From: Candidatus Eremiobacteria bacterium
GTDB lineage: Bacteria > Vulcanimicrobiota > Vulcanimicrobiia > Vulcanimicrobiales > Vulcanimicrobiaceae
Reading direction: 5' to 3'
DNA: 64,000 nt
Assembly: GCA_963758295.1 (NCBI GenBank)
Contig: CAVWUU010000001.1
Location: 352,001-416,000 of the forward strand
Numbering within the stretch: position 1 is the stretch's first letter; every line of letters begins with the position of its first letter. This document shows, in pieces, positions 1,633-50,720 of this stretch. The notes beneath the pieces were generated by a model, which saw only the letters and a list, made by a program, of their open reading frames with translations, had not been told where the DNA came from and searched no databases. The position numbers and the translations under genes were made by a program.

Positions 1633-1670
1633 TTCACCGGGGGTTGCGCGTATTTTATCCACGCTACCTC

Positions 1671-1697
1671 GACGGCGCCCGCCCTTAAAACGTGACC
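1671..1697 (-). promoter_or_regulatory. Candidate ECF41-dependent autoregulatory promoter
   Basis: Minus strand GGTCACG-N16-CGTC versus the ECF41 consensus TGTCACA-N16-CGTC as recalled; about 40 nt upstream of the sigma start. Confidence 0.55.
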
Positions 1698-1745
1698 TCA
1701 CCGCTCTATCTGGAGGTGAGCCGTTGGACCGCGCGCAGCCCAGCT

Positions 1746-2681
1746 TCACATTTTGTAGCTGTGCAGGCCGCTTATCCAGATGTTCACGCCCAAGTACGTG
1801 AAGATTACAAGGAAAAAGCCGAAGAAGCTCACCCAGTTGGTGCGCAAGCCGCGCCACCCGTTGCGCGTGTGTAAGTGCATGTAAGCGAGGTAAATAATCC
1901 AGGTCGACAAGGCGGCCGTTTCTTTCGGATCCCACTGCCAGTACGCGCCCCAGGCTTCTTTCGCCCACGCAGCGCCGGTGATGATGCCGATCGAAATCAG
2001 CGGCAGCCCGATCGCCACCGCGCGATAGACCACGACGTCGAGCTGCGCGAGTGATGGAAGCGTGGAAAGCCACTGCGCGAGCGGGCTTCCCGACGCGGCG
2101 GCCGCTTCAAGCGACGGCGTGTCGCCTCTTACTCGCATGGTCAAGCCCGTGCCTGCGAACTCGACGTTGGCGGCGGCGCTCGCAATGCGCGCTTCGGCGT
2201 AGTATTTGATGAGATAGATCGATGAAAAAACAAACGCCACTAGAAACGCCGCGTACGACGAAACGACAAGCGGCACGTGAATCTTCGCCCAGTACGATTG
2301 CAGCGACGGGACGGGCGGCATCGTGCCTTCATTCCACGTTACTCCATAGGCGAGGAAAATGGCCGCAATTGCGAGCACGAAGCCGCCCGCGAACCAGAGC
2401 TTATAGCGTACGGCAAAGCCGATGAAAATTGCGACGGACATGGCGGCGAACAAGGATAGGGACCCGTAGAGGTTCAGCAGCGGCCACACGTGCGTCAGTT
2501 CGTAGCGCACGAGCAATTGCGCGAATTGGGCGACGCAGCCCACGATCGCAAGCGGCGCGCCGAGATTACGCAGCCACTCTTCGCGAGAGAAGAAGTACAC
2601 GCCGAGAGCAAGCGCGCCCAGCACGTAACACGCGATCGACACGATCATCAGGAGTTCGTCGGCTTGCAAGTGTCCGTTCAT
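1746..2681 (-). CDS. ccsA: Cytochrome c biogenesis protein CcsA/ResC (System II)
   Basis: Trp-rich WWD motif WGAYWQWDPKET, conserved His residues, C-terminal GLHSY, multiple TM segments. Confidence 0.95.
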   Translation of the reverse strand: MNGHLQADELLMIVSIACYVLGALALGVYFFSREEWLRNLGAPLAIVGCVAQFAQLLVRYELTHVWPLLNLYGSLSLFAAMSVAIFIGFAVRYKLWFAGGFVLAIAAIFLAYGVTWNEGTMPPVPSLQSYWAKIHVPLVVSSYAAFLVAFVFSSIYLIKYYAEARIASAAANVEFAGTGLTMRVRGDTPSLEAAAASGSPLAQWLSTLPSLAQLDVVVYRAVAIGLPLISIGIITGAAWAKEAWGAYWQWDPKETAALSTWIIYLAYMHLHTRNGWRGLRTNWVSFFGFFLVIFTYLGVNIWISGLHSYKM

Positions 2682-2683
2682 GC

Positions 2684-4067
2684 TTAGAATGCCTCCGCCG
2701 GAGTGAAATCGGTGCGCGGCCCGGGCGGCTCCATCGAGCGCCGCAGTTCTTCCACCAACTCTTGGAATTGAACCGCAAAAATATCGTAGCCCTTTACGGT
2801 TGTCGCCGCGAGGCCGACGCTGCAGCCCGTTGCCGTTTCTTCGACGCGAACGTACAAGCGCGCGGGCAAGAAGTAAAACGAAACGATCAATCCGGCGAGC
2901 AAGACGAGCGCGCCGATCGCGACGAGCGGAATTCCGGGATCGTACCGATACTGAAATCCGCTATAGAGCACGTATTGCTGCGGAATCACGCGCCAGCCGC
3001 TGCCGAGATCGATCCACGTTCGTAACGGAACGAGCGCGGAGCCGGCGCTGCCGCCTTCTTGCGCGACGCTTAGAACGGCCGCGGGATCGTTCACGCGCGG
3101 GTCCGCCGAGGGCATACCGCTCTGCCGGTCGACCGTTGGAACGAACCGGTCGTAGCTTACGCGTCGTGCGCGTGCCCGGAATGTCGAACGAGTCGCCCTC
3201 TTCGAGTATTCGATCCGACAACGTCGCAACGCGTTTTCCGTTATGCGTCACGAGAAAGCGCATCGCGAAGCCGTAACTCGCCTGGTAATACAGCGTGCCG
3301 TCCACGTCGATCGGGTGATTGACTCGCACCGTCATGTTTTTCGGAATGCCGTCGTTGCCGGTAACGGTTACGTGGGAAACGTAGTCGACCGGCTGGTAAA
3401 CGATGCCGCTCTTCGTCATGATGGGTGAAATGCGGTAATGAAAATCATTCAGGCGTACGACGGCATGCGTTTGCGGAATCTCGGCCGCCTGGCCGGTGAC
3501 GATGGCGGTTTCGCCGGAGAAGCCGCGAGCCCAGTACAGCGTCGTGCCTGCGGCGATGATGACGAATCCGAGATGCGCGATCAGCACGCCGCGGCGAGCC
3601 CAATTGTGCTTGTCCGCGAAAGTCCACTCGGTGCCGTCGAATTCGCGTTTGCGCACGTTCCAGTGACGCGATCGGAAGAACGCATCGACGCGAGCGGCGA
3701 CGTCGCTCTGCGCTCCATGCATGCCGATCGACGCGTTCAGCGGAATTTTATCGATCTTCACCGGACGCAGCGGCGGCAGCCGCGCGGGGATCACACGTTT
3801 GAACGTACAGACGGTGAGCGAAACGAGAATCAGGGCGATGATGCCGATGTACCACGGCGAGTGGTACATGTTGTCGAACCCGAGCCGCACCAGCGCGCGC
3901 GCAATCGGTGCCGGATACGCGGCGAAGTACGAGGCGGCATCCTTGTTTTGGTCGACCACGACGCCGATGAGCGTGAGGACGCCCCAAACCAGAAAGAGAC
4001 AGACCGCGAAAAGAACGTTGCTGAACGTTCGCAGAAAATCTTCGTACGTGCTGCGTGCTTGAACCAT
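2684..4067 (-). pseudogene. resB: Cytochrome c biogenesis protein ResB/CcsB, split by a frameshift near 3161 (likely sequencing error)
   Basis: Frame 1 has LGFDNMYHSPWY and AHLGFVII; frame 2 continues VSYDRFVP...YSGFQYRYDPGIPLV; adjacent to ccsA. Confidence 0.85.
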
Positions 4068-4079
4068 CGCCCGCTTAGC

Positions 4080-4880
4080 CTAGGCCGAGCGTTCCGTGCG
4101 CCGCCACGACTTCTCAAGCACGACGATGAGCCACAACGACGCTTCGTAAAGGATGTACATCGGCAAAGCAAGCAGCGCCATCGTGAGCGGATTGCCGTCG
4201 GGAGCCGCGATTCCGCCGGCAACGACAAAGCCGAAGAGCGCGTGGCGGCGGTACTTCGAAAGCCACTGTCCGCTGATGATGCCGAGCCGGGCAAGACCCA
4301 CGAGCAAGATCGGCAGCTGAAAGATCAGCGCAAACAAGCCCAGCAGAATCAGCACGAAGTTTAAGGTTTCCGCGACGCCGAATGTAGGCGTCGCGATCTC
4401 GTTGGTGATACCGATCAGGGCGCCCACCACGCGTGGAATCACGATGAAGTGCGCGAAGGCAAGGCCAAGCGCCGCGAGGACAATCGAAGGCAGAATGAAG
4501 GCGTAGACCATGCGGCGCGTCCGCGGGTGAACCGCCGGCACCACGAACATCCACGTCTGATACACCAGCATGGGCAATCCGACGACGATGCCTGCAATGA
4601 CCGAAAACTTGAATTCCGTGAAGATGACATCCGCGGGACCGAACGCGTGCAACTGGATGCCGTGAAAGTAAGCCTGTACCATCCAGCGGATCGCAAACTG
4701 CGATGGCCAAAAGACGAGGAGCGCAATGACGCCTACGGTCCCGATGGCAAATAGAAGACGCGCACGGAGCTCCCGAAGGTGCTCCGTAAACGGCATTTCC
4801 TTTTGATCCCATGCGGCTTCGGCCGATGCTCCGTTCGAATCCGTGGCCGAACCGTAGCGTTCCGGGATCGATTGCGTCAT
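4080..4880 (-). CDS. tatC: Twin-arginine translocase subunit TatC
   Basis: EMPFTEHLRELRARL, YQTWMFVVPAVHP, KYRRHA, six TM segments, LYEASL. Confidence 0.95.
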   Translation of the reverse strand: MTQSIPERYGSATDSNGASAEAAWDQKEMPFTEHLRELRARLLFAIGTVGVIALLVFWPSQFAIRWMVQAYFHGIQLHAFGPADVIFTEFKFSVIAGIVVGLPMLVYQTWMFVVPAVHPRTRRMVYAFILPSIVLAALGLAFAHFIVIPRVVGALIGITNEIATPTFGVAETLNFVLILLGLFALIFQLPILLVGLARLGIISGQWLSKYRRHALFGFVVAGGIAAPDGNPLTMALLALPMYILYEASLWLIVVLEKSWRRTERSA

Positions 4881-37475: not shown

Positions 37476-39215
37476 GTGCGAGTCACGGCCCGGTTCGTCC
37501 TGTTCGCGATTACGGCGATGGCGATCGTCATCTTCTACGGGCCGTTAGGGCATGACGACTACACCGGCCGCTGGGGTGGCGGCACCTACGGCTTTGAGAC
37601 GCGCCGGGGAGTTACGGGCTCCAACGCCGTTGCCGGTGTGCTCGCGGGCTCGCCGGCGCAGCGAAGCGGCGTTCGGATCGACGACACGATCGCTCTACGG
37701 CCGTTCGATCAAAATTCGTTCCGGCTGGCCTATCCGCGCGCAGGCGACCACGGTACCTTCACGTTCGTGCGTCCGGACGGCTCTCGATTCACGGTAGCGA
37801 TGACGGCAGTGCCTGTTCCTCATTTCACCGCGTGGGATCGGCTCACCGGAATCCTCGCGATGTTGCCGCCGACGGTGTTTCTCATCGTCGCTTTCATGCT
37901 GGTTTATCTCCGGCCGAATGTGATGACGTGGTCGTTCTACGCTTTCGGCCTCGGATATTTTTCCACAGCGCCGTCGTACCAGTACTTTGCCACGCAGTTG
38001 CCGCCGGGCGTGTTCCTTCCGCTCACATTCGTGCTCTCGACGTTTTTCGGAAACTTCGCCGTCATGCCGCTGCTGCCGTTCGTGCTGCGCTTTCCCGACG
38101 GAAACGTCACGGGAATCCGGCGGCGCTACAATCGCGCAATCTGGATTGCGATCGTCTGCGCTTTTGCGGCGTACTCGTTCCAGTGGTGGTACGAAAATGT
38201 GACCGGCGAACCGCCGTCGTTCCGCGACGTTCTCGATACGTGGTTGCCGCTGGCGTCGTTTTCCTTTGCATCCTTGATCGTCGTCAAGAAGTATAAGACG
38301 GCCTCGCCCGCGATTAGGCAGCGCTTCGGATTTCTCGTCATTGGGCTCATCGTGTCGTTCCTGGCCTACGCGATCTACTTCGTCCCCGGCGTCCCGGTGA
38401 GTGTCGCGCAGATTGCTGGATACGCGGTCGTCATCATGCCTATTGCCGTTGCCTACGGCGTGCTGCGGCATCGCGTGCTGGACGTAAATTTCGTCTTGAA
38501 TCGCGCGATCGTCTACGGCTTGCTTTCGATCTTCGTGATTGCGGTAGTCTCGCTGCTGGATTGGTTCTTCGCGATGATCGTTTCCAGGCAGCATCTTGCC
38601 CTTGCCGGCGAATTGCTCGCTACGATCGCGATCGGCTTTTTGCTCGACCGAATCAACAAAGGCATCGAACGGATGGTCGAATCGGTTTTCTTTCGTCACC
38701 GGCAGCTGGCTGAAATTCATCTGCGCCGAGTCGCCAAGGCCCTCCCTTATGCAACGGAGGAGGAAGCGGTGACCGACGGTCTCGTGCAAGTTCCGGTCGA
38801 TGCGCTGCATTTAAGTGCCGCGGCGCATTATCGGCGCTCGACGGACGGATCCCGCTTCGAAGGCGTTGGCACCTCACACGATACGCCCATGGCTCCGGCA
38901 GGGTTTAACGCAAACCACTTGCTGGTACGGCTGTTGCAAGCTAACGAGGATCGGGTTTGGCTCGACGAATTGCGTTCGCAATTGGATCGCGACAACGCAG
39001 CGATTTACGTTATCGCCATCCCGGTCGCCGTGCGGCATGAGCTCGTCTCTTTCACCCTTTATGGCGCGCATAAAAACGGCGCGCAGCTCGACCCCGATGA
39101 GCTCGAGCTGCTATGCCTGCTTTCCGATGAAGCCTCGCGCGCCTACGATCATATCGACGCAGTGCGTACGCGCGAACGTTACGACGGCCTTATAACTGCG
39201 CGAGAAACTGCGTGA
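37476..39215 (+). CDS. Membrane sensor-like protein: PDZ-like domain, 7-8 TM, C-terminal GAF-like domain
   Basis: VLAGSPAQRSGVRIDDTI (PDZ-like); AYGVLRHRVLDV; AIPVAVRHELVSFTLYG...DELELL (GAF-like). Confidence 0.72.
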   Translation: MRVTARFVLFAITAMAIVIFYGPLGHDDYTGRWGGGTYGFETRRGVTGSNAVAGVLAGSPAQRSGVRIDDTIALRPFDQNSFRLAYPRAGDHGTFTFVRPDGSRFTVAMTAVPVPHFTAWDRLTGILAMLPPTVFLIVAFMLVYLRPNVMTWSFYAFGLGYFSTAPSYQYFATQLPPGVFLPLTFVLSTFFGNFAVMPLLPFVLRFPDGNVTGIRRRYNRAIWIAIVCAFAAYSFQWWYENVTGEPPSFRDVLDTWLPLASFSFASLIVVKKYKTASPAIRQRFGFLVIGLIVSFLAYAIYFVPGVPVSVAQIAGYAVVIMPIAVAYGVLRHRVLDVNFVLNRAIVYGLLSIFVIAVVSLLDWFFAMIVSRQHLALAGELLATIAIGFLLDRINKGIERMVESVFFRHRQLAEIHLRRVAKALPYATEEEAVTDGLVQVPVDALHLSAAAHYRRSTDGSRFEGVGTSHDTPMAPAGFNANHLLVRLLQANEDRVWLDELRSQLDRDNAAIYVIAIPVAVRHELVSFTLYGAHKNGAQLDPDELELLCLLSDEASRAYDHIDAVRTRERYDGLITARETA

Positions 39216-40108
39216 GCGTTTCGTCGAACTTTTGCGGCTGGTCCAGCATCACGTAGTGTCGCGCCGCGGTAATCGGCAACGACTTGCGCTTTCGGCGCAC
39301 CCGCTACGAGCATCTTGTAGAATGTCAGCGTATCGCTTTCCGAATACGGGCTGGGCGAGGCGTACGGCATGATCTCTTCGAACGGGATGGTCACCTTCGC
39401 GAGCTGCGGACGGAGATCGGTCGTTAGATCGGCCGCGGCCCATGCTCCCACCGCTTTCGGATCGCTCTTTGAGACGAGATCGCCGAGTGACGGGGCAAAT
39501 GCAGCGTCGGTGGTGCCGATCGTCGCCATGTAATTGCGCTCGTATTGGACGAAGCTGGCGTGCTGCATTGAATCGAGTTGTGTGGTGATGCCTTTTGCCA
39601 TGGAGGCGCGCTGATCGGCCGTCGATTGAGCCGCCGCCGGAAAGACCGGAAGCCCGTCTGCCGCTACGATGCCGGCGAGGCGGTCGGGGTGCTGTTCTGC
39701 GAGCAGAATCGCAAGCGTTCCGCCGAGGCTGTGCCCGATCACAACCGGTTTATCGATGTGCCGCTGCTCGAGCAGCGACCAAAAATCACGTGTGAAGCCG
39801 GCCAGCAAATCGCTTTCGTTAGACGCTGCTCGGCCGTCGAATCCCGGTAGCGTGATTGCGTAGATCGTATAGTTCGGCGAAAAGTGCGCGATCTGTTCGT
39901 ACCACGTCCAGGTTCCACTCGCGAGTCCCGGAATGAACACGAGCGTTTTCGGCCCGGAGCCGTAGCGATCGACATGAAGCATCCCGCTGTCGAACGATTC
40001 CGTGGGATGCGGTGCCGGTGCAATGGCCGCCGCGAGGGCCGGCTGCGACGCAAAGGCGACGTTGAAGAACAGCGCCGCGGCGAGCAGCGCGCGAAAGGTG
40101 CGAATCAT
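39190..40108 (-). pseudogene. Secreted alpha/beta hydrolase; frameshift near 39277 removes the catalytic His from the called ORF
   Basis: IPGLAS, LPGF, GHSLGG; alternate frame PITAARHYVMLDQPQKFDETLTQFLAQL-stop at 39190. Confidence 0.85.
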
Positions 40109-40325: not shown

Positions 40326-40717
40326 CGATAGCGCAGGCGCAGTACGATCGAGGACATGAGCCATGCCGCTGCCATCACCGGCCATACCGCAAACATGCTC
40401 AAGCGCGGAAAGCCGGCTCCCTCCAGAAATCCGTACGTAAACGTGATGAACGCCGTGGCGCCGACGGTTACGGCAAGAGACGTCAATTGTATCTGGCGTT
40501 CGAGTTCGTCGCAGGCCGAGAGATACCGGACGATTGCGGCGACCGTGAAAATCACCGGAATCATCGGCGTCACGGCAAGCACGATAAGAAGCGGACGGTT
40601 TGCCGTGCCGATTCGATCCGCGATGAGATTCACCGCCACGAGCAGCACTATGTAAACGGCCAGCGATCCGAATAGCTCGATGAAATAGCGCCGGTTGACT
40701 TGCTGCTGGGTTTTCAT
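40322..40717 (-). CDS. Four-TM membrane protein of the type found next to small XRE regulators
   Basis: Four hydrophobic segments, DELERQI motif; ATGA coupling to the XRE gene. Confidence 0.8.
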   Translation of the reverse strand: MKTQQQVNRRYFIELFGSLAVYIVLLVAVNLIADRIGTANRPLLIVLAVTPMIPVIFTVAAIVRYLSACDELERQIQLTSLAVTVGATAFITFTYGFLEGAGFPRLSMFAVWPVMAAAWLMSSIVLRLRYR

Positions 40718-40815
40718 CGCGGCGCCGCAAGGACTGGAAACGGCACGAATGCGGCTTCGGGCGTGCCCGTGCTGGGACTGTGCGGCATGACCGTGGGAAC
40801 GTGGAACCAGTGCAT
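40714..40815 (-). CDS. Unannotated 33-aa small ORF MHWFHVPTVMPHSPSTGTPEAAFVPFPVLAAPR
   Basis: AAAGGAGG SD 7 nt before ATG; its TGA overlaps the next ATG (ATGA). Confidence 0.6.
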   Translation of the reverse strand: MHWFHVPTVMPHSPSTGTPEAAFVPFPVLAAPR

Positions 40816-40837
40816 TCCCTACCCTCCTTTACCGTGA

Positions 40838-40878
40838 AATGTACGGCATAAGTGACACAATGTCAATCATAAGCGACA
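40838..40878 (-). promoter_or_regulatory. Sigma70 promoter overlapped by two 18-bp operator-like sites
   Basis: Minus strand TTGACA-N17-TACATT (40866-40838); TGTACGGCATAAGTGACA (40840-40857) and TGTCAATCATAAGCGACA (40861-40878), 21 bp apart. Confidence 0.75.
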
Positions 40879-40918
40879 TTTTGTCTTCTTGGTGCGACTC
40901 CTGGCATTAAATCATGTC

Positions 40919-40935
40919 GTGAAAGTCATTTTCAC
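40919..40935 (+). promoter_or_regulatory. Fur/PerR/Zur-family-like 7-1-7 box upstream of the peroxiredoxin
   Basis: GTGAAAGTCATTTTCAC inverted repeat with one mismatch. Confidence 0.55.
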
Positions 40936-41005
40936 TTTTGTGCGGATCGGGTAGAGTGAGCTTCAGAACATCACTCGCTTTCAGCAAAAGGTGGAACTAC
41001 TCATA

Positions 41006-41560
41006 ATGTTGGCGCAAGTCGGCAAACAGGCACCCGATTTCAAACTTCCGAGCACCAAAGGCGCGACCGGAGCGAAGGACCTCGGCAAAGAGATCAAGCT
41101 CTCCGACTATCGCGGCAAATGGCTCGTGTTCTTCTTTTATCCACTGGACTTTACGTTTGTGTGTCCGACCGAAATCACGGCACTTTCGGACCGTGCAGAC
41201 GAGTTCAAAGAGTTTGATACCGAGATCCTCGGCGCGTCGACTGATTCGGTGCACAGCCACTGGGCATGGATCAACACGCCGCGTGAGAAGAACGGCATCG
41301 CGGGTCTGAACTACCCGCTAGTCGCCGACTACACGAAGGAAACGGCGCGTGCCTACGGCGTTCTCGACGAAGCGTCGGGCGTCGCGCAACGCGGGCTCTT
41401 CATTATTGATCCGGAAGGCGTGCTCAAATACGCGGTGGTGACCGACGACAACGTCGGACGTAGCGTAGAAGAAACGCTTCGCGTTCTGCAGGCTCTTCAG
41501 ACCGGTGGTCTTTGCCCGGCTGAATGGAAACCCGGCAAAGCGCTGCTCCAGAAGGCATAA
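41006..41560 (+). CDS. ahpC: 2-Cys peroxiredoxin (AhpC/YkuU-like)
   Basis: FYPLDFTFVCPTE, RGLFIIDP, GRSVEE, LCPAEW. Confidence 0.96.
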   Translation: MLAQVGKQAPDFKLPSTKGATGAKDLGKEIKLSDYRGKWLVFFFYPLDFTFVCPTEITALSDRADEFKEFDTEILGASTDSVHSHWAWINTPREKNGIAGLNYPLVADYTKETARAYGVLDEASGVAQRGLFIIDPEGVLKYAVVTDDNVGRSVEETLRVLQALQTGGLCPAEWKPGKALLQKA

Positions 41561-42037
41561 ATGGCACTACGCATGCGCAGCCCTCTTCCTTCGCTGGAGG
41601 GGGCTGCCGCGTGGCTCAACGGTGAAGTAAAGTCCGAAGAGCTGCGCGGACTTCCCGTCGTTGTCTCCTTTTGGTCGAAGAGCTGTTACATCTGCCATGA
41701 CACCGCCGAGCAATTCGCGCAGTGGCGCGATAAATACGCAAAGCACGGTGTCGCCTTTCTTTCGGTGCATCAGCCGCGTTCCGAGGACGAACTCGACGTC
41801 GAAGCAGTGAAAAAAGATGCCGTCGAAGAGATGAAGCTTACTCAGCCCACGGCGATCGACAACGATCACGCGCTTGTGGAGCGCTTCCAAAACCAATTCG
41901 TGCCGGCGTTTTACGTCTTCAACCGAAAGCACGAATTGCGTCACTTTCAAGCGGGCGGCAAAGGCTTCGAGCGTATCGAAGCGGCGATCGACCGCGTATT
42001 GAACGAGACGCCGGAGGAAGAAGAACTGAACGCTTAG
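41561..42037 (+). CDS. TlpA-like thiol-disulfide oxidoreductase (Bacillus YkuV-like)
   Basis: AWLNG, FWSKSCYIC CxxC, VHQPRSE, VPAFYVF, LRHFQAGG. Confidence 0.9.
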   Translation: MALRMRSPLPSLEGAAAWLNGEVKSEELRGLPVVVSFWSKSCYICHDTAEQFAQWRDKYAKHGVAFLSVHQPRSEDELDVEAVKKDAVEEMKLTQPTAIDNDHALVERFQNQFVPAFYVFNRKHELRHFQAGGKGFERIEAAIDRVLNETPEEEELNA

Positions 42038-42075
42038 CATGCGTTCTTAAATTTCGGTGAAAAGTATTCGCTAAA

Positions 42076-42110
42076 CGGCCCACCGCGCAAGCGGTGGGTC
42101 GTCGCGTTTT
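42076..42110 (+). terminator. GNRA-capped hairpin downstream of the redoxin pair
   Basis: CGGCCCACCGC-GCAA-GCGGTGGGTCG followed by a short, offset T tract. Confidence 0.5.
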
Positions 42111-42157
42111 ACTGCTCTTAGCACCGGGTAATGGGCCACCGCTGGGAGGATCAATAC

Positions 42158-42439
42158 ATGAATAAAAGATTCGCAAGTTTTGTCGTGCTCGGAGCTCTTG
42201 CGGCCACTGCCTCTATAGCGGCAGTTGACGCAAAGACCGCCGCACCGACATCATCTGCAACGGCCTGTCCAAGCTCGTCACCAATGGCCTCCACATCCAA
42301 CACGATGAGCGAAGACAGTACGAAAATGGAAAACTGCGCCTCGCCCTCACCCGGAGCGATGAGCAGCATGGCTCCCGGAGCAAAGGCAAGCCCCGGAACC
42401 ATGGGCAGCGCAGCGCCGACCTACACAGCTCGTCCCTAA
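42158..42439 (+). CDS. Small secreted Ser/Thr/Pro/Met-rich low-complexity protein with two Cys
   Basis: GGAGGA SD; signal peptide MNKRFASFVVLGALAATASIAAVDA. Confidence 0.75.
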   Translation: MNKRFASFVVLGALAATASIAAVDAKTAAPTSSATACPSSSPMASTSNTMSEDSTKMENCASPSPGAMSSMAPGAKASPGTMGSAAPTYTARP

Positions 42440-42496
42440 ACTGTAACTCCGCAACGACCGGAGGTCGATGCACGCGCCGCCGCTAACGACAGGCGC

Positions 42497-44446
42497 GTGC
42501 ACGACGGGTCTTTCCGCCTCGCCGTTTTTTGCGGGCCATCGTTGCCTCAATGCGATCGTCTGGCCGACGACCGCGTAACGTATCTGCCGCCGGCATCGCG
42601 CGGCGACGTTCTTCGTGCCGCTAAAGACTACGACGCCGTCCTGCTTATCGACGGCCTCTTCCATCACGATCTCGCGCCTGCGCCGAAAGAATGTTACGAA
42701 TCGACGCTGCACGCCCGAATGTTCGGCGCATCGAGTATGGGCGCGCTGCGCGCGGCCGAATGCGCGCCATACGGTTTTGTGGCGCTTGGCGCTATTGCTG
42801 GTTGGTACGTTCGTGAATCGATCGATGGTGACGATGAAGTCGCGGTGTTAACGCATCCGCAGTCCGGCCGCGCGATCACCGTTCCCGTGGTGAACGTGCG
42901 GCACGTGGCGCGGCTAGCTCGGCGTCGCGGACTGCTTTCGCGTGCGGGCGAGGCGCAGTTCATCGCTAGCGCACGCGAGATTTACTACATGGACCGGAGT
43001 TGGGACGGCGTCATTGCATGCGCGCCTCCGTCGATTGCCAAGCAGTTACACGAACTCATTATGGAGTCAGGAGATCTAAAGCGCCTCGATGCGCGCTTTG
43101 CACTTCGGACGGTGATAAGAACGCTTCAGCGCACAAAAGACGCACGGATTCCATTCGTTACGAAGCGCCCTGCATGCGAATCGGCGCGCGAGTCCGGCGA
43201 AGTGCGACTGCCCTCGACTTCTCCGAAAGATCCCTCGACGTACGATCGCGCGACCAGCTATGCCAGCACGCTCGATCTTGCTCCGGAATTGCGGCGTCGT
43301 TTTGGAATCACTCGCATAGCGGATATAACGAACCTCGACCGGGTCGGCATCCCGGTCTATTCAACGCTCGTTCCGCGTTCGCCCGACATGCTCGGCGTCT
43401 ACAACGGGAAAGGGCTAACGCGCGACGCGTCCATCGCGAGCGCGATCATGGAGGCCGCAGAACGGCAGATCGCCGCCAACGTGCGCCTTCCGGCTTTCGA
43501 GGAAACGGTTGAAGCGGTTTCGCAGCACATCGATCTTCCCGAACTCGGAATGATTGACGTAGCGCCGTCAATGCCGGTACAGTGCGTTCGCGGGACGGAA
43601 TTGCTCTCGGGCGATTCGGTTGCGATTCCGCTTGCACTCGTCCAATGTCCGTGGTTCGGAGAGAAGCTCTTCGATGTCACCAGCACGAACGGGCTCGCGT
43701 CAGGCAACAATATAGCGGAAGCTGTTTATCATGCCTTGTGCGAATTGGTCGAGCGCCACGCCTGGGCGATGTATCACGTACGTTCGTCACTTGTTCCGCG
43801 GCTGTTCGGCGGAACGAACGCGATGGATCGCAGCGTCGCTCCGCAGCTAAAGCTGCCGACGGGCGACCGAGTCGTCGACGCGCTGATCGAAAAAATCGAA
43901 TCCGCCCGACTCGTGTTGCGAGCATTCTTGCTCGAAGAGGCGGAGCTGCCCTATACGGTATTCGTCTCGATTTTTGAGCCGGATCTCGAACCGCCGATGG
44001 TGCACATGGGCATGGGCTGTTCGCTTTCCCCCGCGCATGCGCTGGTACGGGCGCTGACCGAGGCCGTGCAGAGCCGTGCGATCGACATTCAGGGGGCGCG
44101 CGAAGACATGTTGCGTCCCGACGATCCACCGACAAATATGGGCGAACATAATCGACGCCGCAAAGAGTTACCAAAAGATCGTTGGTATTTCGACTTGCCG
44201 GCTCGAGAGATCGAGCTTTCGGGCTTCGTCGATCGTTCGAGCGATGACGTCGCACAAGATGTCCGCACGACGCTCGGCGCGCTCGCCGGTTACGGAATCC
44301 GAAAGATCTTTGCGGTCGAACTAGCGCCGGCGGATTTGTCCGTCAGCGTCGTGCGAGCGATCGTCCCGGGGTTGGAATCGTTTATGTACAGCGGGCGGCT
44401 CGGATCGCGAACTCGGGCGCTGCTCAACCCATTCGCGGTCGCCTGA
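42497..44446 (+). CDS. TfuA-YcaO fusion protein (putative peptide backbone thioamide synthetase)
   Basis: TfuA motifs VFCGPSL, LPPASRGD, IDGLF, GASSMGALRAAE, DDEVAV, DLKRLDA; YcaO motifs GITRIADITNLDRVGIPV, NGKG, MEAAER, TNGLASGN, ELVER, RALTEAVQSR, VRAIVPGLE. Confidence 0.92.
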   Translation: MHDGSFRLAVFCGPSLPQCDRLADDRVTYLPPASRGDVLRAAKDYDAVLLIDGLFHHDLAPAPKECYESTLHARMFGASSMGALRAAECAPYGFVALGAIAGWYVRESIDGDDEVAVLTHPQSGRAITVPVVNVRHVARLARRRGLLSRAGEAQFIASAREIYYMDRSWDGVIACAPPSIAKQLHELIMESGDLKRLDARFALRTVIRTLQRTKDARIPFVTKRPACESARESGEVRLPSTSPKDPSTYDRATSYASTLDLAPELRRRFGITRIADITNLDRVGIPVYSTLVPRSPDMLGVYNGKGLTRDASIASAIMEAAERQIAANVRLPAFEETVEAVSQHIDLPELGMIDVAPSMPVQCVRGTELLSGDSVAIPLALVQCPWFGEKLFDVTSTNGLASGNNIAEAVYHALCELVERHAWAMYHVRSSLVPRLFGGTNAMDRSVAPQLKLPTGDRVVDALIEKIESARLVLRAFLLEEAELPYTVFVSIFEPDLEPPMVHMGMGCSLSPAHALVRALTEAVQSRAIDIQGAREDMLRPDDPPTNMGEHNRRRKELPKDRWYFDLPAREIELSGFVDRSSDDVAQDVRTTLGALAGYGIRKIFAVELAPADLSVSVVRAIVPGLESFMYSGRLGSRTRALLNPFAVA

Positions 44447-45297
44447 TGGAAAACCAAGACGGGTTACTCGCGCGGGTTTTACGCGGTGATTCGGCCGAGC
44501 GGCACCACTGGGACGAATACTACCGGACATTCCATGCGATGCGGCCGCGCACGACGTCGACGTACGCGGGAAGGCTCCGAACCGAAGATGCTAAGAGTTC
44601 CTATGATGTTTTGGCGGATGCGCTTGCGCCGGTCCGGTCGGTCCTGGATATAGGATGCGGGGACGGGGTGCTGCTCGCCGCAATTCACGAACGCTTTCCG
44701 AGCGCAGTCCTTTCGGGCGTGGACCTCGGCGAAGTGGATCTCGAGTTTGCGAGAGAGCGTCTGCATAACGTGCCGATCGGGACGCTCGCCGTTGAAAATG
44801 CATTAGATCTTCCGTTTGGCGATGAGTCGTTCGATGCGGTCGTCTCTCACATGGTCTTCATGCTGATTCCGGAGTTGGACGACGTGTTGCGCCAGGCGAG
44901 ACGCGTCTTAAAAGAGGACGGGACCGTTGCGTTTGTCGTCGGCGATCCGGCAGCTACCGAAGGTCATATGCGCCGATTTTTTACCTCGGTCAACGAAGCG
45001 ATTCGTACGGAGCATCCAAAGTTCACTCCCCTCAATCCCGCCGATCCGCGAATCTTCGATACGAACGGCATCCGGGAAGCGATGGAGGGCCAGGGCTTCA
45101 CGAACGTCGCGCAAGTTCGGTTCAAATGCGCAGCGCAGCTCGATGCGGATAGCGTTTACGAACAACTCTTGCTACGCTACTACACAGGATCGCTCGGCGA
45201 ACTCGATCTCCAACGAATCAAGGACGTCGCCGGCGCTTTCGCATCGCCGTCGTTCCGCTACACCGAATCACTGCGTCTTGTGACCGCAAATCGTTAA
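44446..45297 (+). CDS. Class I SAM-dependent methyltransferase
   Basis: VLDIGCGDG, GVD, LPFGDESFDAVVS, RRVLKEDG; TGATG overlap with tfuA-ycaO. Confidence 0.92.
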   Translation: MENQDGLLARVLRGDSAERHHWDEYYRTFHAMRPRTTSTYAGRLRTEDAKSSYDVLADALAPVRSVLDIGCGDGVLLAAIHERFPSAVLSGVDLGEVDLEFARERLHNVPIGTLAVENALDLPFGDESFDAVVSHMVFMLIPELDDVLRQARRVLKEDGTVAFVVGDPAATEGHMRRFFTSVNEAIRTEHPKFTPLNPADPRIFDTNGIREAMEGQGFTNVAQVRFKCAAQLDADSVYEQLLLRYYTGSLGELDLQRIKDVAGAFASPSFRYTESLRLVTANR

Positions 45298-45362
45298 AGC
45301 GGCCGCCTGTTTGTCCGATAGATTCCTAGAGCCGAACTAACTACTGCTTCAGCGAGGATTTC

Positions 45363-45641
45363 ATGGCGACAGTTCAACAGAAGGCGATTGCCGCCGGGTT
45401 TTTGCATGCATTGCAAGATCCCGCGGTGTTGGAAAAGTGGCAAGATGCCAAAGGCGATAGCATGAAGCTTCGCACGCTGATCAAAGACACGCTCGGGCTC
45501 TCGCAACTCCCCTCAGAGGCCGATCTGGATGCCATGCGCGGCCACGCCGAGGAAGCGCTTCAAGAAGAACACAAGACACTGCTCGAGCATCAAGAGCATG
45601 CGCCACACGTAGTCGGAAACGGATTTACCGTACAGCAGTAG
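45363..45641 (+). CDS. 92-aa small protein, candidate RiPP precursor with a Nif11/NHLP-like helical leader
   Basis: GAGGA SD; co-oriented after the methyltransferase; [14 protein letters not shown] and [12 protein letters not shown] leader-like motifs. Confidence 0.65.
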
Positions 45642-48245
45642 ACTGGCTCAGAACCCAGGTCGCGATCTGAGTTCGTTTCGAAACGCCGAGCTTGTTGAAG
45701 ATGTTGGCGACGTGGCCTTCGATGGTACGTTCGCTCAAAACCAACTGCTCGGCGATTTCTTTATTGCTTCTTCCCTCCGAAATCAGATCCGCGATCTGAC
45801 GTTCGCGCGCCGTGAGCGAGCCGCCCGTTTTGCCATCGGCCAGCGTAGTTTGCGTTTGGAACCACGAGACGCCGCGCTCAGCGAGCCCTTTGGCGGCGTC
45901 GCGTTGTTCGGTGCCGCGCCCGCACGCGGCGAGCAACAAAAACCGTGCCAGCGTCATGCCCAAATACTCGCATTGCGTTGCGAGCGCTCCGATCGATCCC
46001 GAGAGCTGGCGGCCCAAGAAATGATTGGCGAGGGCACCCGTAACGCTGCGTTCCGCTGCGGAAAGGGGCTGCATGTCGGCCCAAAAGGCGGAACCGTCTG
46101 CCGCTCGAGCCAGAACGTCTTTTCGCTTCAGCCTTTGAGCTGCAAGTGCGATAGGCAGGCGCCACTGGAAAAGGTATGGGTCTTGCGAACTCGCCGCATA
46201 CGGAAGGGCGGCGTCGAGAAGCCGCGAGCTCGTTTGATCGTCCAGAAGTCCTGAAGCAGCCGACCATACCGCCATGTTATATAACACAGCCGATTTTTCG
46301 CCCGCGGCGAATCGCAGCGCTTCCGCCTCGATCGTCTTCCAATAAGAACCCGGCGATCCGCGCAGCGCATAGAGCGCCGCCGCACTGCCCAGAATACGTC
46401 CCCGCTCGGAGCCCTCCAGCGGCCGGCGCAACGAGTCTTCGATGCTAAGCGATGCCTCATCGAGACGCGCGCTCTGAATTTTTGAATGCAGAACGAACTG
46501 CGTGAGCTCCGGATTGCGCACGTCGTTCAATTGCATCCGGATGAAGCCGTTATCGCGCGTTCCGAACTGCATGTACCGAATGTAGGCGTCGACAACCACG
46601 GCATGATTGCTATTAGTCGAATGGAGGGACTTGGCGATCTCCGTTATGAGAGGTAGACGCTTGCGCGCCGCTTCATAATCGCCCGACCTGCTCTCGACGA
46701 ATGCTTGCGCAATCTCCGCTCGCATTCGGACCGGGGCCGGAAGCTCGATGTCCAGGTTCTCGATGTGTTGCAAAGTTCGCTGTAAGCCTTCAACGTCGTG
46801 TTCGCAAACGTTAAACCAAAGCGCTGCCCCGTGGAGCATCGATAAGTCAAGCGGATCGCTAAATACCGAAGCGTAGTGCCGATAGGTCAGTTTAGCCGAC
46901 TCATACCGGTCGCCAAAGAATTGTGACAAGACGAGTTGCGCCGCAAGTGCACCGAGATTCGGAAGCTTACGATATTGCGCTTCGCTTAGCGCATGAAGCA
47001 AGACGGTTTCCGCCCGGCGATCCATCGTCGAAAAGCTCAGCGCTTTTGCAAAATTTCCGTAGAACTCCAAAAAGGCGTCGTCCGGCGGCTCGCCAAGCTC
47101 CATGTGGCTTTCCGAGGCGGAAATAACCATGCGAAAAAGATTTTTTTCGTTAGCTTGCGATGAAAGCGCAAGATACGTTTCCTGCGCGAGTTTGCGGTCT
47201 CCGGCGGATAGCGCCTGTTCGGCTATTAGTAAGCGGTCTTCGACTCGCAATCGATCCGCTCGGGAAATCGCTTCGATGATCGGCGGTGCAGCGGGATCTT
47301 GATCGGAATCGTTTCCAGCACCGCTTCGCCCACAAGCGCGTGTCTGAAGCGTAGCGTCGCGCCTTCCTGAACGAGATACTGCGCGGCCGATTGCGCGATG
47401 TATTCGCCGAGTTCGGTGCTGTTCGTCCACAGGCGTGCCAACAGATCGTACTCGATCGGCTCGGGAAGGAGGGACACGATTTGAAGAAACGTGCGAAACC
47501 CGGAGCTTAGACCCTGGATACGACGAGCAATTAACGAACGCGTGCTTCTCTCAACGTCGCCCGCGTTGTGCGCATCGTTTTCGGCCGCTGCTTCGGCGAG
47601 CGCCGTGAGATCGAGCGGAACACCGCCCGAGTGCTCGATGATCCGGTCGATGACGGCCGTTTCCGCGTGCGGCAGCGATTGCTCGACGAGTTCTCTTGCG
47701 CGACGCGCATCCAGCGTGCCAAGACCGATCGTTTCGTCTACTGCCAGAGGGACGTCTGAAGCCATCTCGTCGCTTCGGCGCGCGAGAACGAGAAGGAGCG
47801 GCGAACTTGCAAACTGCGGAACGATAGCATCCAGCGCCGACAGCGTTTCTTCATCAGCCCACTGCGCGTCGTCCAATAGCAACGCGACCGGACGGTCAAG
47901 AAGAATGCCTTCGAGCGCTGTTGATAACGCAATTGCCGGATCGTGCCCTGCACCGTCCGCCGCGAAGTAGCGCGTTGAGTCCGGGCCCAAAGCGTTCGCG
48001 ATTTGCGAAAGCATGCGCGAAAGCGAGGCGTACGGAACGGTCGCCTGGATCCGAAAAGCGGCCGTGCCTACCACGAGCGCCCCTTGCTGTTGAAGCCGGC
48101 CGGCAAGCTCTGCCATAACAGCGCTCTTGCCGATGCCGCTCGGTCCCTCAACGAGCAAGACTCGGGGCACCGGCGTGGTAACGGCCGTTTTGAAAAGATC
48201 CAGGGCGGACGCGATTTCCCGTTCGCGGCCGATGAGGGAAGACAT
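45625..48245 (-). pseudogene. Large ATP-binding LuxR-family regulator (AAA_16 plus C-terminal HTH), frameshifted near 47280
   Basis: LIGREREI, GPSGIGKS, LLDDAQWAD, GGVPL, FRHAL in frame 1; LTARERQIA...[20 protein letters not shown] in frame 2. Confidence 0.88.
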
Positions 48246-48370
48246 GACCTCTCACGGTCCTGGTTGCCCGCCTGATTTTCCTTCTAATTTGACTTCATCA
48301 TAACCAGGGGTTTCCACGGGCGACCCGGGGGTGTTTGCCCTGCTAGGCTTAGCGCGTGGAGGAGCTTTCT

Positions 48371-48730
48371 ATGTATGCACCCGCGCTGACCCTGACCGGT
48401 TTTCCGGATCACCGCCCGAGGAGCACGCGCATGCGATCGTCCGTTCCGTACTGCTTCATCTTGGACGACACGTACCGGATCGTGATGGCCGGCCCGTCGG
48501 GCGGAGAAGACCCGCTTGCTCCCTACTACGCCTCCGACTCAGAACCCGATGTGTTACCCGGTCCCGTCGACCGCGTCGTACGCGCCCTCACGGCGGCCTG
48601 GCGTTCAACGAGAGCCGCTGCAAGCGCATCGGCATCGGTTAACGAGTTGCAGGTAACCGTGGCGCCCCTTCACGGAACCGACGGACGAAAGATCGCGGTT
48701 TTCGTGCAGCGATCCGACGAACAGAAGTAA
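48371..48730 (+). CDS. Hypothetical small protein, possibly a stand-alone PAS-like fold
   Basis: GGAGGAG SD; CFILDDTYRIV...LQVTVAPL...IAVFVQR pattern. Confidence 0.7.
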   Translation: MYAPALTLTGFPDHRPRSTRMRSSVPYCFILDDTYRIVMAGPSGGEDPLAPYYASDSEPDVLPGPVDRVVRALTAAWRSTRAAASASASVNELQVTVAPLHGTDGRKIAVFVQRSDEQK

Positions 48731-48776
48731 GTAAAAAGGCGCAGGCGCGCGGGACGCGCCTGCCGCTCCAGCGTAC

Positions 48777-50720
48777 TTGCTGGCTGTGCGAATTGAATTA
48801 ACCGCCCGCGGCCTTCTGCTCGGCGGCCTTATTACGCTGGTTTTTACCGCAGCCAACGTTTATCTCGGCCTCAGGGTCGGCCTCACATTTGCATCTTCCA
48901 TCCCAGCCGCTGTCATTTCGATGGCGGTTCTTCGTATGTTCCGCAACTCGACGATTTGGGAAAACAACATCGTTCAGACGGTGGCGTCGGCGGCCGGGAC
49001 GCTCTCCTCGGTAATCTTCGTTCTGCCGGGTCTCGTGATGGTAGGCTGGTGGACGGGCTTTCCGTTCTGGGAATCGTTCGGCATTTGCGCCGTCGGCGGA
49101 ATTCTGGGCGTAATGTACAGCGTGCCGCTGCGTCGTGCGCTCGTAACGTATTCCGATCTGCCGTATCCGGAAGGCGTTGCAGCCGCCGAAGTATTGCGCG
49201 TCGGGGCGGGCGAGGGCGCGACCGAAGCGCAAGCCGAGAATCGCCTTGGGCTCATCGCGCTAGTTGTAAGTTCCGTCGCATCGGCGGCCGTGCAGCTCGG
49301 CGTTGCCTTTCGTTTGTTTGCCGCCGACCTCACGGCATTCTTCCGTGCGGGTAAATCCTCGACGGGTATCGATTTTTCGCTTTCGCTCGCGCTGATCGGC
49401 GCCGGCCACCTAATCGGGCTCACCGTTGGTATGGCAATATTCGCCGGGCTGATCATTGCGTGGGGAATCGCGATTCCGATTCTCACGGCGATGCATCCGA
49501 TGCCTGGGCCGGCAGCCGACGTGGCAAATTACGTTTGGTCGCATTACGTGCGATTCATCGGCGCGGGGGCGATCGGTATCTCGGCCATTTGGACGCTCGG
49601 CAAACTCGCTGCGCCGGTGTGGAACGGCGTCGCTTCCGCTATCGCGGCGTCCCGTCATCGCGCCCAAGTCGGCGCCGAAAGCCTGCCCATCACCGAGCAA
49701 GATTTGCCGATCGGGATCGTGGCGATGATTTCGACCGTCTGCCTGCTGCCGATCGTCATCCTGTTGTGGGCCTTTCTCTCGGGGACGGCGATCGTGGGCA
49801 TGGGGCCGGTGCTAATTATCGGTGCCGTGTTGTACATCGTGCTCGCCGGTTTTCTGGTTGCTGCCGCAACCGGCTATATGGCCGGACTTATCGGCTCTTC
49901 AAACAGTCCGGTTTCCGGCATGGCGATTCTCTCGGTAATCGGCGCGTCGTTGCTGTTGCTCGTGCTTTCGCATGGTGCGGATAAATCGTCGGCGCCCGCG
50001 CTCGTCGCCTATGCATTGTTTGTTACGGCGCTGTTGATCAACGTCGCAACCATTTCGAACGATAACTTGCAAGATTTGAAGACCGGCCAGCTCGTTGGAG
50101 CAACGCCATGGCGGCAGCAAGTCGCGCTGATGGTCGGCGTGATTTTTGGCGCAATCGTGATTCCGCCGGTCCTTGTTGTGCTCAACAAGGCCTACGGCTT
50201 CGGCGGTCCGCACGGGTTGCCGGCTCCGCAAGCGACGTTGATCTCCACGCTCGCCAAGGGCGTGATTCAGGGGCAGATCGACTGGAGTTTGATCGGGATC
50301 GGCGTGCTCGTCGGTATCGGGATCATCATCATCGATGAAGCGGGCCGCATCAGTGGACGTTTCCGTCTGCCGCCGCTGGCTGTCGGCCTGGGGATTTACT
50401 TGCCGACCAGCGCGACGGCCCCCGTGGTAGTCGGTGCGGTCTTCGGCAAGATTTACAACACTTGGGTCGCGACCAAACCGAACGGCGACGCAGCGCGCCG
50501 TCTCGGCGTGCTGGTCGCGTCGGGATTGATCGTCGGAGAAAGTGTTTTCGGCGTCTTCTTGGCCGGGCTTATCTACGTCTCGAATAAGCCGTCGCCGCTT
50601 GCGATCTTCGGCGATTCTTTTGCGGGCTGGGCGTTAGGCCTTGGAGCGATCGCGTTCGTCGCGATACCGTTTGCACTTTATCGCTGGATCGGCCGAAGCG
50701 CGCAAACGCTCGAAGCCTAA
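48777..50720 (+). CDS. OPT/YSL family oligopeptide transporter
   Basis: ELTARGL, ANVYLGL, SIPAAVIS, ENNIVQT, LPYPEG, NSPVSG, LQDLKTG, PAPQA. Confidence 0.95.
   Translation: MLAVRIELTARGLLLGGLITLVFTAANVYLGLRVGLTFASSIPAAVISMAVLRMFRNSTIWENNIVQTVASAAGTLSSVIFVLPGLVMVGWWTGFPFWESFGICAVGGILGVMYSVPLRRALVTYSDLPYPEGVAAAEVLRVGAGEGATEAQAENRLGLIALVVSSVASAAVQLGVAFRLFAADLTAFFRAGKSSTGIDFSLSLALIGAGHLIGLTVGMAIFAGLIIAWGIAIPILTAMHPMPGPAADVANYVWSHYVRFIGAGAIGISAIWTLGKLAAPVWNGVASAIAASRHRAQVGAESLPITEQDLPIGIVAMISTVCLLPIVILLWAFLSGTAIVGMGPVLIIGAVLYIVLAGFLVAAATGYMAGLIGSSNSPVSGMAILSVIGASLLLLVLSHGADKSSAPALVAYALFVTALLINVATISNDNLQDLKTGQLVGATPWRQQVALMVGVIFGAIVIPPVLVVLNKAYGFGGPHGLPAPQATLISTLAKGVIQGQIDWSLIGIGVLVGIGIIIIDEAGRISGRFRLPPLAVGLGIYLPTSATAPVVVGAVFGKIYNTWVATKPNGDAARRLGVLVASGLIVGESVFGVFLAGLIYVSNKPSPLAIFGDSFAGWALGLGAIAFVAIPFALYRWIGRSAQTLEA

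Follow-up and report, generated by a model that had tools for sequence, protein, structure and literature searches.

The question raised by this locus is what a bacterium of the Eremiobacterota makes with a gene that joins TfuA and YcaO in a single chain and that is followed by genes for a methyltransferase and a small peptide. The locus lies in a stretch of 64,000 nucleotides (positions 352,001 to 416,000 of contig CAVWUU010000001.1, assembly GCA_963758295.1), which is referred to here as the window and whose own numbering is used throughout. The source genome amounts to 3.03 Mb in 6 contigs, is 82% complete and belongs to a soil bacterium of the Eremiobacterota that is uncultured; the labels Eremiobacterota, Vulcanimicrobiota and Candidatus Aquilonibacter occur among its relatives. 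The original prediction was that of a minimal pathway for a thioamidated and methylated peptide. The results of the current study support this reading at the level of the genes, and from them we infer the thioamidation and methylation of the peptide. We consider it likely that the locus is a biosynthetic island specific to the Eremiobacterota (Vulcanimicrobiota) lineage and devoted to a ribosomal, backbone-thioamidated peptide; as judged from sequence, the predicted product is most likely a short sulfur-modified peptide derived from a 92-residue precursor. The island is a unit extending over positions 42497-48730, and it comprises the TfuA-YcaO gene, the methyltransferase gene (lacking in some relatives), the precursor gene p92, a LAL regulator gene and h124. 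It is therefore larger than the predicted extent of 42497-45641, as the regulator and the 124-residue protein h124 travel along with the other genes. The features of the unit are as follows:

42497-44446, plus strand: single-chain TfuA-YcaO enzyme, 649 residues, GTG start (open reading frame, Pfam, NCBIfam, solved structures)
42497-43141, plus strand: TfuA domain, approximately residues 1-215 (6xp8 aligns to residues 7-211, NF033432 to residues 9-206)
43244-44446, plus strand: YcaO domain, approximately residues 250-649 (TIGR03266 aligns to residues 251-630)
44446-45297, plus strand: class I S-adenosylmethionine (SAM)-dependent methyltransferase, 283 residues (Methyltransf_11, E 1.3e-20)
45363-45641, plus strand: p92 precursor gene, 92 residues and stop (open reading frame; GAGGA site; family of 83 representatives; always with TfuA)
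45363-45599, plus strand: p92 leader, residues 1-79 (AlphaFold2 helices; invariant residues)
45600-45638, plus strand: p92 core, residues 80-92 (disordered in the model; four hypervariable residues; tandem in relatives)
45625-48245, minus strand: LAL-type regulator, STAND/AAA ATPase with LuxR helix-turn-helix (AAA_16, E 3.1e-22; GerE, E 5.2e-19)
48356-48730, plus strand: h124, small conserved protein, 124 residues (homologues in 32 loci)

The p92 precursor and its partner enzyme

Comparative genomics shows that p92 is the precursor of a peptide made on the ribosome and modified after translation (RiPP), as it combines a conserved leader, a hypervariable and disordered core, relatives with several cores in tandem and a position that is kept beside the enzyme. 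As had been predicted, the gene for this 92-residue peptide follows the methyltransferase gene, after a gap of 65 nt, and it possesses its own Shine-Dalgarno sequence (GAGGA) 7 nt 5' of the ATG. No family in Pfam or NCBIfam matched p92. A profile built from 12 homologues and searched against 1.84 billion representatives defined a family of 83 proteins at E ≤1e-3 (47 at E ≤1e-10), nearly all of them 88-125 residues long. The N-terminal ~80 residues are common to all family members and contain the invariant leader positions A10, F13, H15, W26, K30, D32, G45, L46, P50, D54, M58 and L66. The C-terminal unit of the family reads P-x-x-(V/A)-G, about five mostly hydrophobic residues and Q; in p92 itself, four hypervariable residues are enclosed by the conserved flanks P-x-H-V-G and (M/V)-Q-Q, and G85 of the core is invariant. 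Pairwise comparison of 31 unique single-core precursors illustrates how strongly this cassette is diversified: at a leader identity of 80-90% (13 pairs) the four variable residues are 42% identical and the flanks 90%, and at a leader identity of 60-80% (109 pairs) these values are 28% and 78%, respectively.

At least nine relatives (P0124, P0136, P0148, P0150, P0153, P0155, P0166, P0174 of locus L017 and P0203) carry tandem cores, with 2-5 copies behind one leader, and P0148 holds five copies of the core type found in the window (H-A-V-G-x-G-F-T-V-Q-D). The longest contig measures 9055 bases both for P0148 and for the closest fused enzyme, P0002, which suggests that the two lie on one contig. 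The tandem multi-core relatives and the hypervariable cassette bear out the earlier proposal that the small open reading frame is a dedicated precursor. Other subgroups join the same leader to different cores, either of a (Y/C)-x-F-N-G type or of Cys-containing types. Most cores lack Cys, and many lack Cys, Ser and Thr altogether; azoline formation is thus ruled out on the latter, which fits thioamidation.

The AlphaFold2 model of p92, computed from a 12-row alignment, has a mean predicted local distance difference test (pLDDT) score of 70 and places helices at residues 4-16, 20-29, 33-44 and 52-76. Blocks within residues 1-50 reach a pLDDT of 71-86 and residues 51-60 reach 75; residues 76-92 stay below 50 and are disordered. 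The fold is hardly recognised elsewhere, with a best Foldseek match in the PDB at E 3.7 and only unnamed clusters in the ESM Atlas. Two known leader types were considered and rejected, namely Nif11 (PF07862), which matched at chance level in 1 of 12 members (E 0.0089) and 1 of 58 members (E 0.029), and NHLP, for which p92 gave no NCBIfam match. Some precursors (P0123, P0124, P0131 and L019:6060-6416) bear a conserved follower, D-x-x-L-R-E-L-L-E-L-S-R-L-T, after the core. The entire leader and core unit is repeated within one open reading frame in P0123, and P0163 (164 residues), in which an N-terminal YcaO fragment is joined to the C-terminus of p92, is probably a chimeric or frameshifted gene call.

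The linkage of p92 to TfuA and YcaO was followed through a phylum sample of 401 genomes, of which 77 contain TfuA and 52 match the p92 profile. All of the 52 p92-positive genomes contain TfuA, and the 324 genomes without TfuA all lack p92. In 47 genomes both genes are on one contig, 45 times within 3.5 kb of each other and twice further apart (6.1 and 6.7 kb), and they are on separate contigs in five fragmented assemblies. The original prediction had proposed a neighbourhood check of whether the small open reading frame is conserved beside homologues of the fusion, and this conservation was observed from both directions. Both the methyltransferase and p92 are found downstream in all 11 genome loci of the fused enzyme; conversely, among 21 metagenome loci recovered by a p92 peptide pattern alone, a scan that reaches close relatives only, YcaO lies just upstream in 16, accompanied by the methyltransferase in 15 of those 16, and in the other five the DNA extends no more than 478 nt upstream. 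Furthermore, p92 stays adjacent in at least five gene orders, in which the enzyme is fused or split and the methyltransferase (MT) is present, moved or absent:

Fusion-MT-p92: the window
Fusion-p92-MT-p92: L019, L020
TfuA-MT-YcaO-p92: L010, L023, L027, L035
TfuA-YcaO-p92, no methyltransferase: L013, L021, L022, and L018 with three tandem p92 genes
TfuA-multicore p92-YcaO-MT-YcaO-p92: L017

Adjacency that survives such rearrangement weighs more than the co-occurrence counts. The extra tailoring genes next to the core set vary among relatives and include a B12-radical SAM gene (L016), a GNAT acetyltransferase gene adjoining p92 (L015) and other methyltransferase genes (L014, L024); varying tailoring genes of this kind are typical of a diversifying biosynthetic cluster. 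In L016 (G214:C11, 7506-9446 and 11555-12646), a B12-binding radical SAM enzyme is encoded between the methyltransferase and TfuA, and TfuA is abutted by the gene of an S33-like alpha/beta hydrolase; either may be an additional enzyme for tailoring or processing. Upstream of the two-YcaO, two-precursor cluster of L017 (G118:C26, ~1607-4252) are genes for a BlaR1-type M56 peptidase fused to pentapeptide repeats and for a BlaI-type repressor.

The partner enzyme is encoded, as predicted, by one intact open reading frame of 649 residues (42497-44446), in which a full TfuA domain is joined by a linker to a full YcaO domain. Pfam profile searches matched both domains over their full length (PF07812 at residues 52-168, E 5.7e-27, profile positions 1-119 of 119; PF02624 at residues 303-627, E 2.2e-54, profile positions 1-325 of 325). 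The top solved structures are 6xp8 for TfuA and the McrA-type YcaO MJ1094 (6pe3) for residues 255-632, and the top NCBIfam models are those for the YcaO of McrA-glycine thioamidation (TIGR03266) and for TfuA (NF033432). The SagD-type model reached 90.9 bits vs a cut-off of 219, and NF040716, which describes the uL16-type YcaO, reached 21 bits (E 7.7e-05) vs a cut-off of 700. The motifs MEAAER, ELVER and RALTEAVQSR and the C-terminal RALLNPFAVA quoted earlier are all found in the translation. The ATP/Mg-binding glutamates E319, E322, E416, E419 and E522 are all conserved in the complete YcaO domain and, together with Q525, S526 and R527, they are invariant among 40 fused relatives; the linker (approximately residues 216-249) is poorly conserved among the same proteins, with columns that lack a consensus. 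The database gene call P0001 (575 residues) truncates the TfuA domain, as it begins at Met75; the alignments of relatives start at residues 1-8, which makes the GTG at 42497 the better start. This enzyme is the sole YcaO of the genome. The fusion is no isolated case: both domains are on one protein in 79 of the 120 homologue clusters listed, and TfuA lies within an open frame of at least 630 residues in 33 of the 77 TfuA-positive genomes.

In a maximum-likelihood tree of 36 YcaO domains, all 21 fused forms and the split form of L005 constitute one group with a support of 100/100. Unfused forms surround this group and share its precursor family, which indicates a single origin of the fusion in this lineage. 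L005 is placed as sister to the window and L002, and its TfuA and YcaO lie in overlapping, different frames inside the unconserved linker; the split is either secondary or an assembly error. The same syntenic locus is present on the contigs of L006 and L011, labelled Candidatus Acidoferrum and Alphaproteobacteria. Their YcaO domains stand beside those of metagenome loci L030 and L046 with a branch length near zero, and these labels are probably binning errors.

The methyltransferase gene is coupled to the enzyme gene through the predicted TGATG overlap (44444-44448), with the YcaO stop at 44444-44446 and the methyltransferase ATG at 44446-44448. Its best solved relative is LahSB (6uak; E 1e-11, residues 66-223). 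The earlier placing of this methyltransferase in the pathway stands in part: all 11 genome loci of the fused enzyme have a homologue, but it is absent or moved in several relatives with other architectures, and the occurrence of the same core type without a local methyltransferase in L018 indicates that it is an accessory part. Two targets are disfavoured, namely His as the conserved site, since the methyltransferase loci L016, L020, L035 and L036 have no His before V-G, and Gln, which is missing from the core in the methyltransferase loci L016 and L023. The follower after the core in some relatives implies that methylation of a carboxyl group would require prior cleavage.

Proposed pathway and competing readings

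We propose a series of linked steps, in which p92 would act as the precursor, with residues 1-79 as a helical leader and the C-terminal tail as the core. The single-chain enzyme would then dock this precursor, for which complex modelling provides weak support. The prediction for the enzyme with p92 scored 0.51 (runs 0.51, 0.54 and 0.50) vs 0.00 for the best of three controls, with a contact agreement of at least 84% and a partner pLDDT of at least 78. Of 157 solved complexes, 116 attained the pass mark, as did 2 of 215 mismatched pairs, and only 18 of the 157 solved complexes, together with both mismatches, passed at 0.60 or less; our own alignments were used for the prediction and these benchmark counts hold roughly. 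Family knowledge suggests that the YcaO domain would activate a backbone amide with ATP and that the TfuA domain would supply sulfide from a thiocarboxylated ThiS-type carrier encoded elsewhere. Sulfide delivery for thioamidation is the role described for TfuA (PMC13063428). The only ThiS gene found lies next to thiG in a thiO-thiS-thiG operon on another contig, in line with the earlier proposal that the sulfur carrier is supplied in trans. By analogy with the characterised enzymes, we infer backbone thioamidation of the p92 core, in which at least one amide oxygen would be exchanged for sulfur, probably at a position adjoining the invariant V-G; the site is a guess, for which G85 is the obvious candidate.

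The methyltransferase may subsequently methylate a feature common to all cores, and the candidates, put forward with low confidence, are the C-terminal carboxylate (as for LahSB), the thioamide sulfur and the new N-terminus. Leader removal and export would be performed by unlinked functions: as had been proposed, no protease family was found in the unit, and the sole recurring motif before the core, (A/x)-P-x-H-V-G, has no assigned enzyme. Control of expression is assigned tentatively to the LAL regulator and h124, on account of their co-travel with the other genes. A more far-reaching version of this pathway, which we offer tentatively, would make the product a new structural class from an uncultivated phylum. 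The folded p92 leader of ~79 residues would be the recognition module for the single-chain TfuA-YcaO, and the hypervariable cassette of four residues, sometimes in up to five copies, would be thioamidated. The methylation that follows would be of a type new to RiPPs; conversion of the thioamide to a thioimidate by S-methylation is one example.

Several observations weigh against a biosynthetic island for a thioamidated peptide. Both NCBIfam equivalog cut-offs are missed (209.9 vs 365 bits for TIGR03266 and 135 vs 235.2 bits for NF033432), which indicates that the enzyme is a relative of the McrA enzymes and not a McrA enzyme itself. Both the length and the folding of the p92 leader are unusual for a leader peptide, the complex prediction gives weak support only, and neither a protease nor an exporter was found in the unit in any inspected locus. 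There are 25 TfuA-positive genomes without a p92 match, some of which have clearly different TfuA types and one of which has a fused gene at a contig end; moreover, the genomes are kin, so that the co-occurrence counts overstate independence. Finally, the regulator is frameshifted in this genome, and the island may therefore be silent or deregulated here, unless the shift is an assembly error.

Some of these points would also suit a p92 that is thioamidated, and perhaps methylated, but never cleaved or exported; it would then be a small modified protein with an intracellular role, such as that of a ligand or partner of the LAL regulator and h124. The inspected loci encode no protease or exporter in the unit, the N-terminal 60 residues are modelled as a folded helical domain, regulator genes accompany p92 in most loci whose DNA reaches that far, and McrA and uL16 provide a precedent for thioamidation at the protein level (PMC5589413, PMC13063428). 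However, the 2-5-fold core repeats and the hypervariable four-residue cassette are hallmarks of released peptides and not of a structural protein, the tailoring enzymes vary around the core genes, and the thiovarsolin cluster also lacks a protease, yet its peptides are released (PMC6511847). We therefore regard an intracellular role for p92 as unlikely. Less probable still is that TfuA-YcaO modifies an unlinked protein, as in methanogens or E. coli, with p92 as an unrelated small neighbour such as a regulatory protein. The top family matches are indeed of the McrA type, whose substrate gene is not adjacent (PMC5589413), and p92 is in no known family; but the strict co-occurrence (52/52; 0/324), the adjacency across rearranged gene orders, the existence of multi-core p92 forms and the binding weakly supported by complex modelling all favour p92 as the substrate, and the restriction of TfuA to just 77 of the 401 genomes indicates that there is no housekeeping substrate. 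It is just as improbable that p92 undergoes some other chemistry of amide activation by the YcaO domain, for instance formation of an amidine or attack by a different nucleophile: several such outcomes are known for YcaO enzymes (PMC6511847) and the enzyme scores under the equivalog cut-offs, but TfuA, whose described role is sulfide delivery (PMC13063428), is covalently fused and conserved, and the cores often lack Cys, Ser and Thr and lie C-terminal to the leader with no free amine nearby. Thioamidation of a p92-derived peptide is the reading that we retain.

Regulator and boundaries of the island

Where the DNA of a locus extends far enough, the LAL regulator mostly lies convergent to p92. 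In the window, the 3' ends of p92 (plus strand) and of the regulator gene (minus strand) overlap by 17 nt (45625-45641); the convergent, abutting layout recurs in relatives, and antisense or interference effects from this overlap are possible. The regulator is a single frame in L002, L003 and L005 and is split here into open reading frames at 47226-48245 and 45625-47430, owing to a deficit of 1 base near 47283. Both L005 and L002 have a base that is missing here in the stretch CACCGCCG-ATCATC, and the frameshift is either an assembly error or a real inactivation. The protein h124 matched no family in Pfam or NCBIfam and only unnamed clusters in the ESM Atlas. AlphaFold2 models it as a small alpha/beta protein (pLDDT 75) with weak PAS/roadblock-like matches in Foldseek (E 6e-3 to 4e-2); a fold resembling the RiPP recognition element was considered for h124 and was not seen in the ESM Atlas and Foldseek searches. 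The h124 gene lies beside the relocated cluster in L021, and a regulatory role for the protein is a guess. A scan of positions 40700-48900 found promoter-like and terminator-like sites at chance level (4 vs a mean of 2.2 in shuffled sequences, and 11 vs 10.2, respectively).

The limits of the island are drawn by its flanks, which are peroxiredoxin and thioredoxin-like genes upstream and an OPT gene downstream. The flanks are ~75-95% identical between genomes, far above the island genes. The interval between the thioredoxin-like and OPT genes measures 1.9-5.7 kb in G131, G079, G114, G234 and G095, and no match to TfuA, YcaO, the methyltransferase, p92, the regulator or h124 was found in it. In G234, the series h124-TfuA-YcaO-p92-regulator is located ~95 kb from this interval. 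G213, a genome of the same genus flagged as unpublished, has 459 nt between the flanks; the conclusion on the island is independent of G213, and the tallies of island-free intervals include other genomes flagged as unpublished. The flank genes thus stay adjacent without the island and are flanks only, not members of the unit. The peroxiredoxin, the thioredoxin-like protein and OPT were accordingly rejected as parts of the pathway, as they are still neighbours where the island is missing. The outer genes of the neighbourhood are:

39179-40108: secreted alpha/beta hydrolase, backbone gene
48777-50720: OPT transporter, backbone gene

Pfam searches of 13 neighbours returned no E1-like partner, dehydrogenase, protease or exporter apart from the OPT transporter and the alpha/beta hydrolase, in agreement with the original prediction, which had noted that such genes are not adjacent. 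The hydrolase was considered as a leader protease and rejected as a member of the cluster, because its gene belongs to the backbone and has a counterpart in L023 at 51% identity; it shares 26% identity over 109 residues with the hydrolase next to TfuA in L016, which is another protein. The peroxiredoxin (AhpC/TSA) and thioredoxin-like genes occupy 40991-42037 and abut at 41560/41561; they are found by most island loci at 67-97% identity, and also in island-free genomes. Between the thioredoxin-like and TfuA-YcaO genes, an open reading frame of 102 residues (42131-42439) has a signal-peptide-like start and a tail rich in Ser, Pro, Ala and Met; it belongs to no family and is kept only in the closest loci (L005, 86%; L002, 49%).

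Comparison with known systems

Thioamidated ribosomal peptides are few and several of them are bioactive. The system described here has a one-chain thioamidation enzyme together with a precursor family named in no database, in a phylum with almost no cultured members, and it offers a cassette of four residues diversified in nature as well as precursors with multiple cores. The minimal set of two or three genes makes it directly accessible to co-expression, and the system could yield new compounds and a compact biocatalyst for thioamides in peptides. The understanding of thioamidation itself is unchanged, and the island is a natural-product lead rather than a new biological principle.

Several characterised systems share parts of this design. 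In the thioamitides (thioviridamide, thiostreptamide), a YcaO-TfuA pair and a methyltransferase act on a ribosomal peptide. The window differs in that the decarboxylase forming AviCys and the dehydration enzymes were not among the neighbours scanned with Pfam, and in that most cores of the family lack Cys. Thiovarsolin (VarA/VarY/VarT of Streptomyces varsoviensis; PMC6511847) resembles the window in using YcaO and TfuA, in having precursor relatives with one to five repeated cores, and in that the precursor, YcaO and TfuA suffice in a cluster without a protease. In contrast, its enzymes are encoded by separate genes in Actinobacteria, and its product is an N-acetylated APR tripeptide with heme-oxygenase-like tailoring (PMC6511847), whereas the window has a one-chain enzyme, a leader of ~79 residues, a core of the form V-G-x4-(M/V)-Q-Q, a methyltransferase and a LAL regulator; VarA is set apart by this description and not by sequence. 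The McrA thioglycine system (MJ1094, 6pe3; 6xp8) supplies the best-scoring characterised homologues of both domains, with the same presumed chemistry, but its genes are separate, in the order ycaO-tfuA, and its substrate is a large enzyme encoded elsewhere (PMC5589413). The uL16 YcaO of E. coli and other Pseudomonadota likewise performs backbone thioamidation; however, it needs no TfuA and is widespread in its own phylum (PMC13063428). For the methyltransferase, the closest solved relative, LahSB, is also a class I enzyme from a RiPP pathway, which methylates the C-terminal carboxyl group of lanthipeptides at oxygen (PMC11285071). The similarity is modest and mostly that of the SAM-binding fold, and p92 relatives with a follower do not always present a free C-terminal carboxylate before cleavage.

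A fusion of TfuA to YcaO is in itself no novelty: one such tfuA-ycaO gene has been published for Burkholderia thailandensis, in a predicted cluster for a thioamidated RiPP that also holds two genes for radical SAM proteins (Malit et al. 2021, PMC8120280); that cluster belongs to another phylum and is set apart from the island by description. Supplementary figures of the same paper may hold further fused clusters. Since the Eremiobacterota fusion arose inside an unfused Eremiobacterota clade, the two fusions are probably independent. In the literature searched, a scope outside which lay subscription papers and the supplements of PMC8120280, we found no description of the cluster or of the precursor family in Eremiobacterota. 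The island belongs to a kind of system already known, the RiPPs thioamidated by TfuA and YcaO; new in it are the family of precursors, the architecture of their leader, the hypervariable cassette, the pairing with a regulator and the host phylum.

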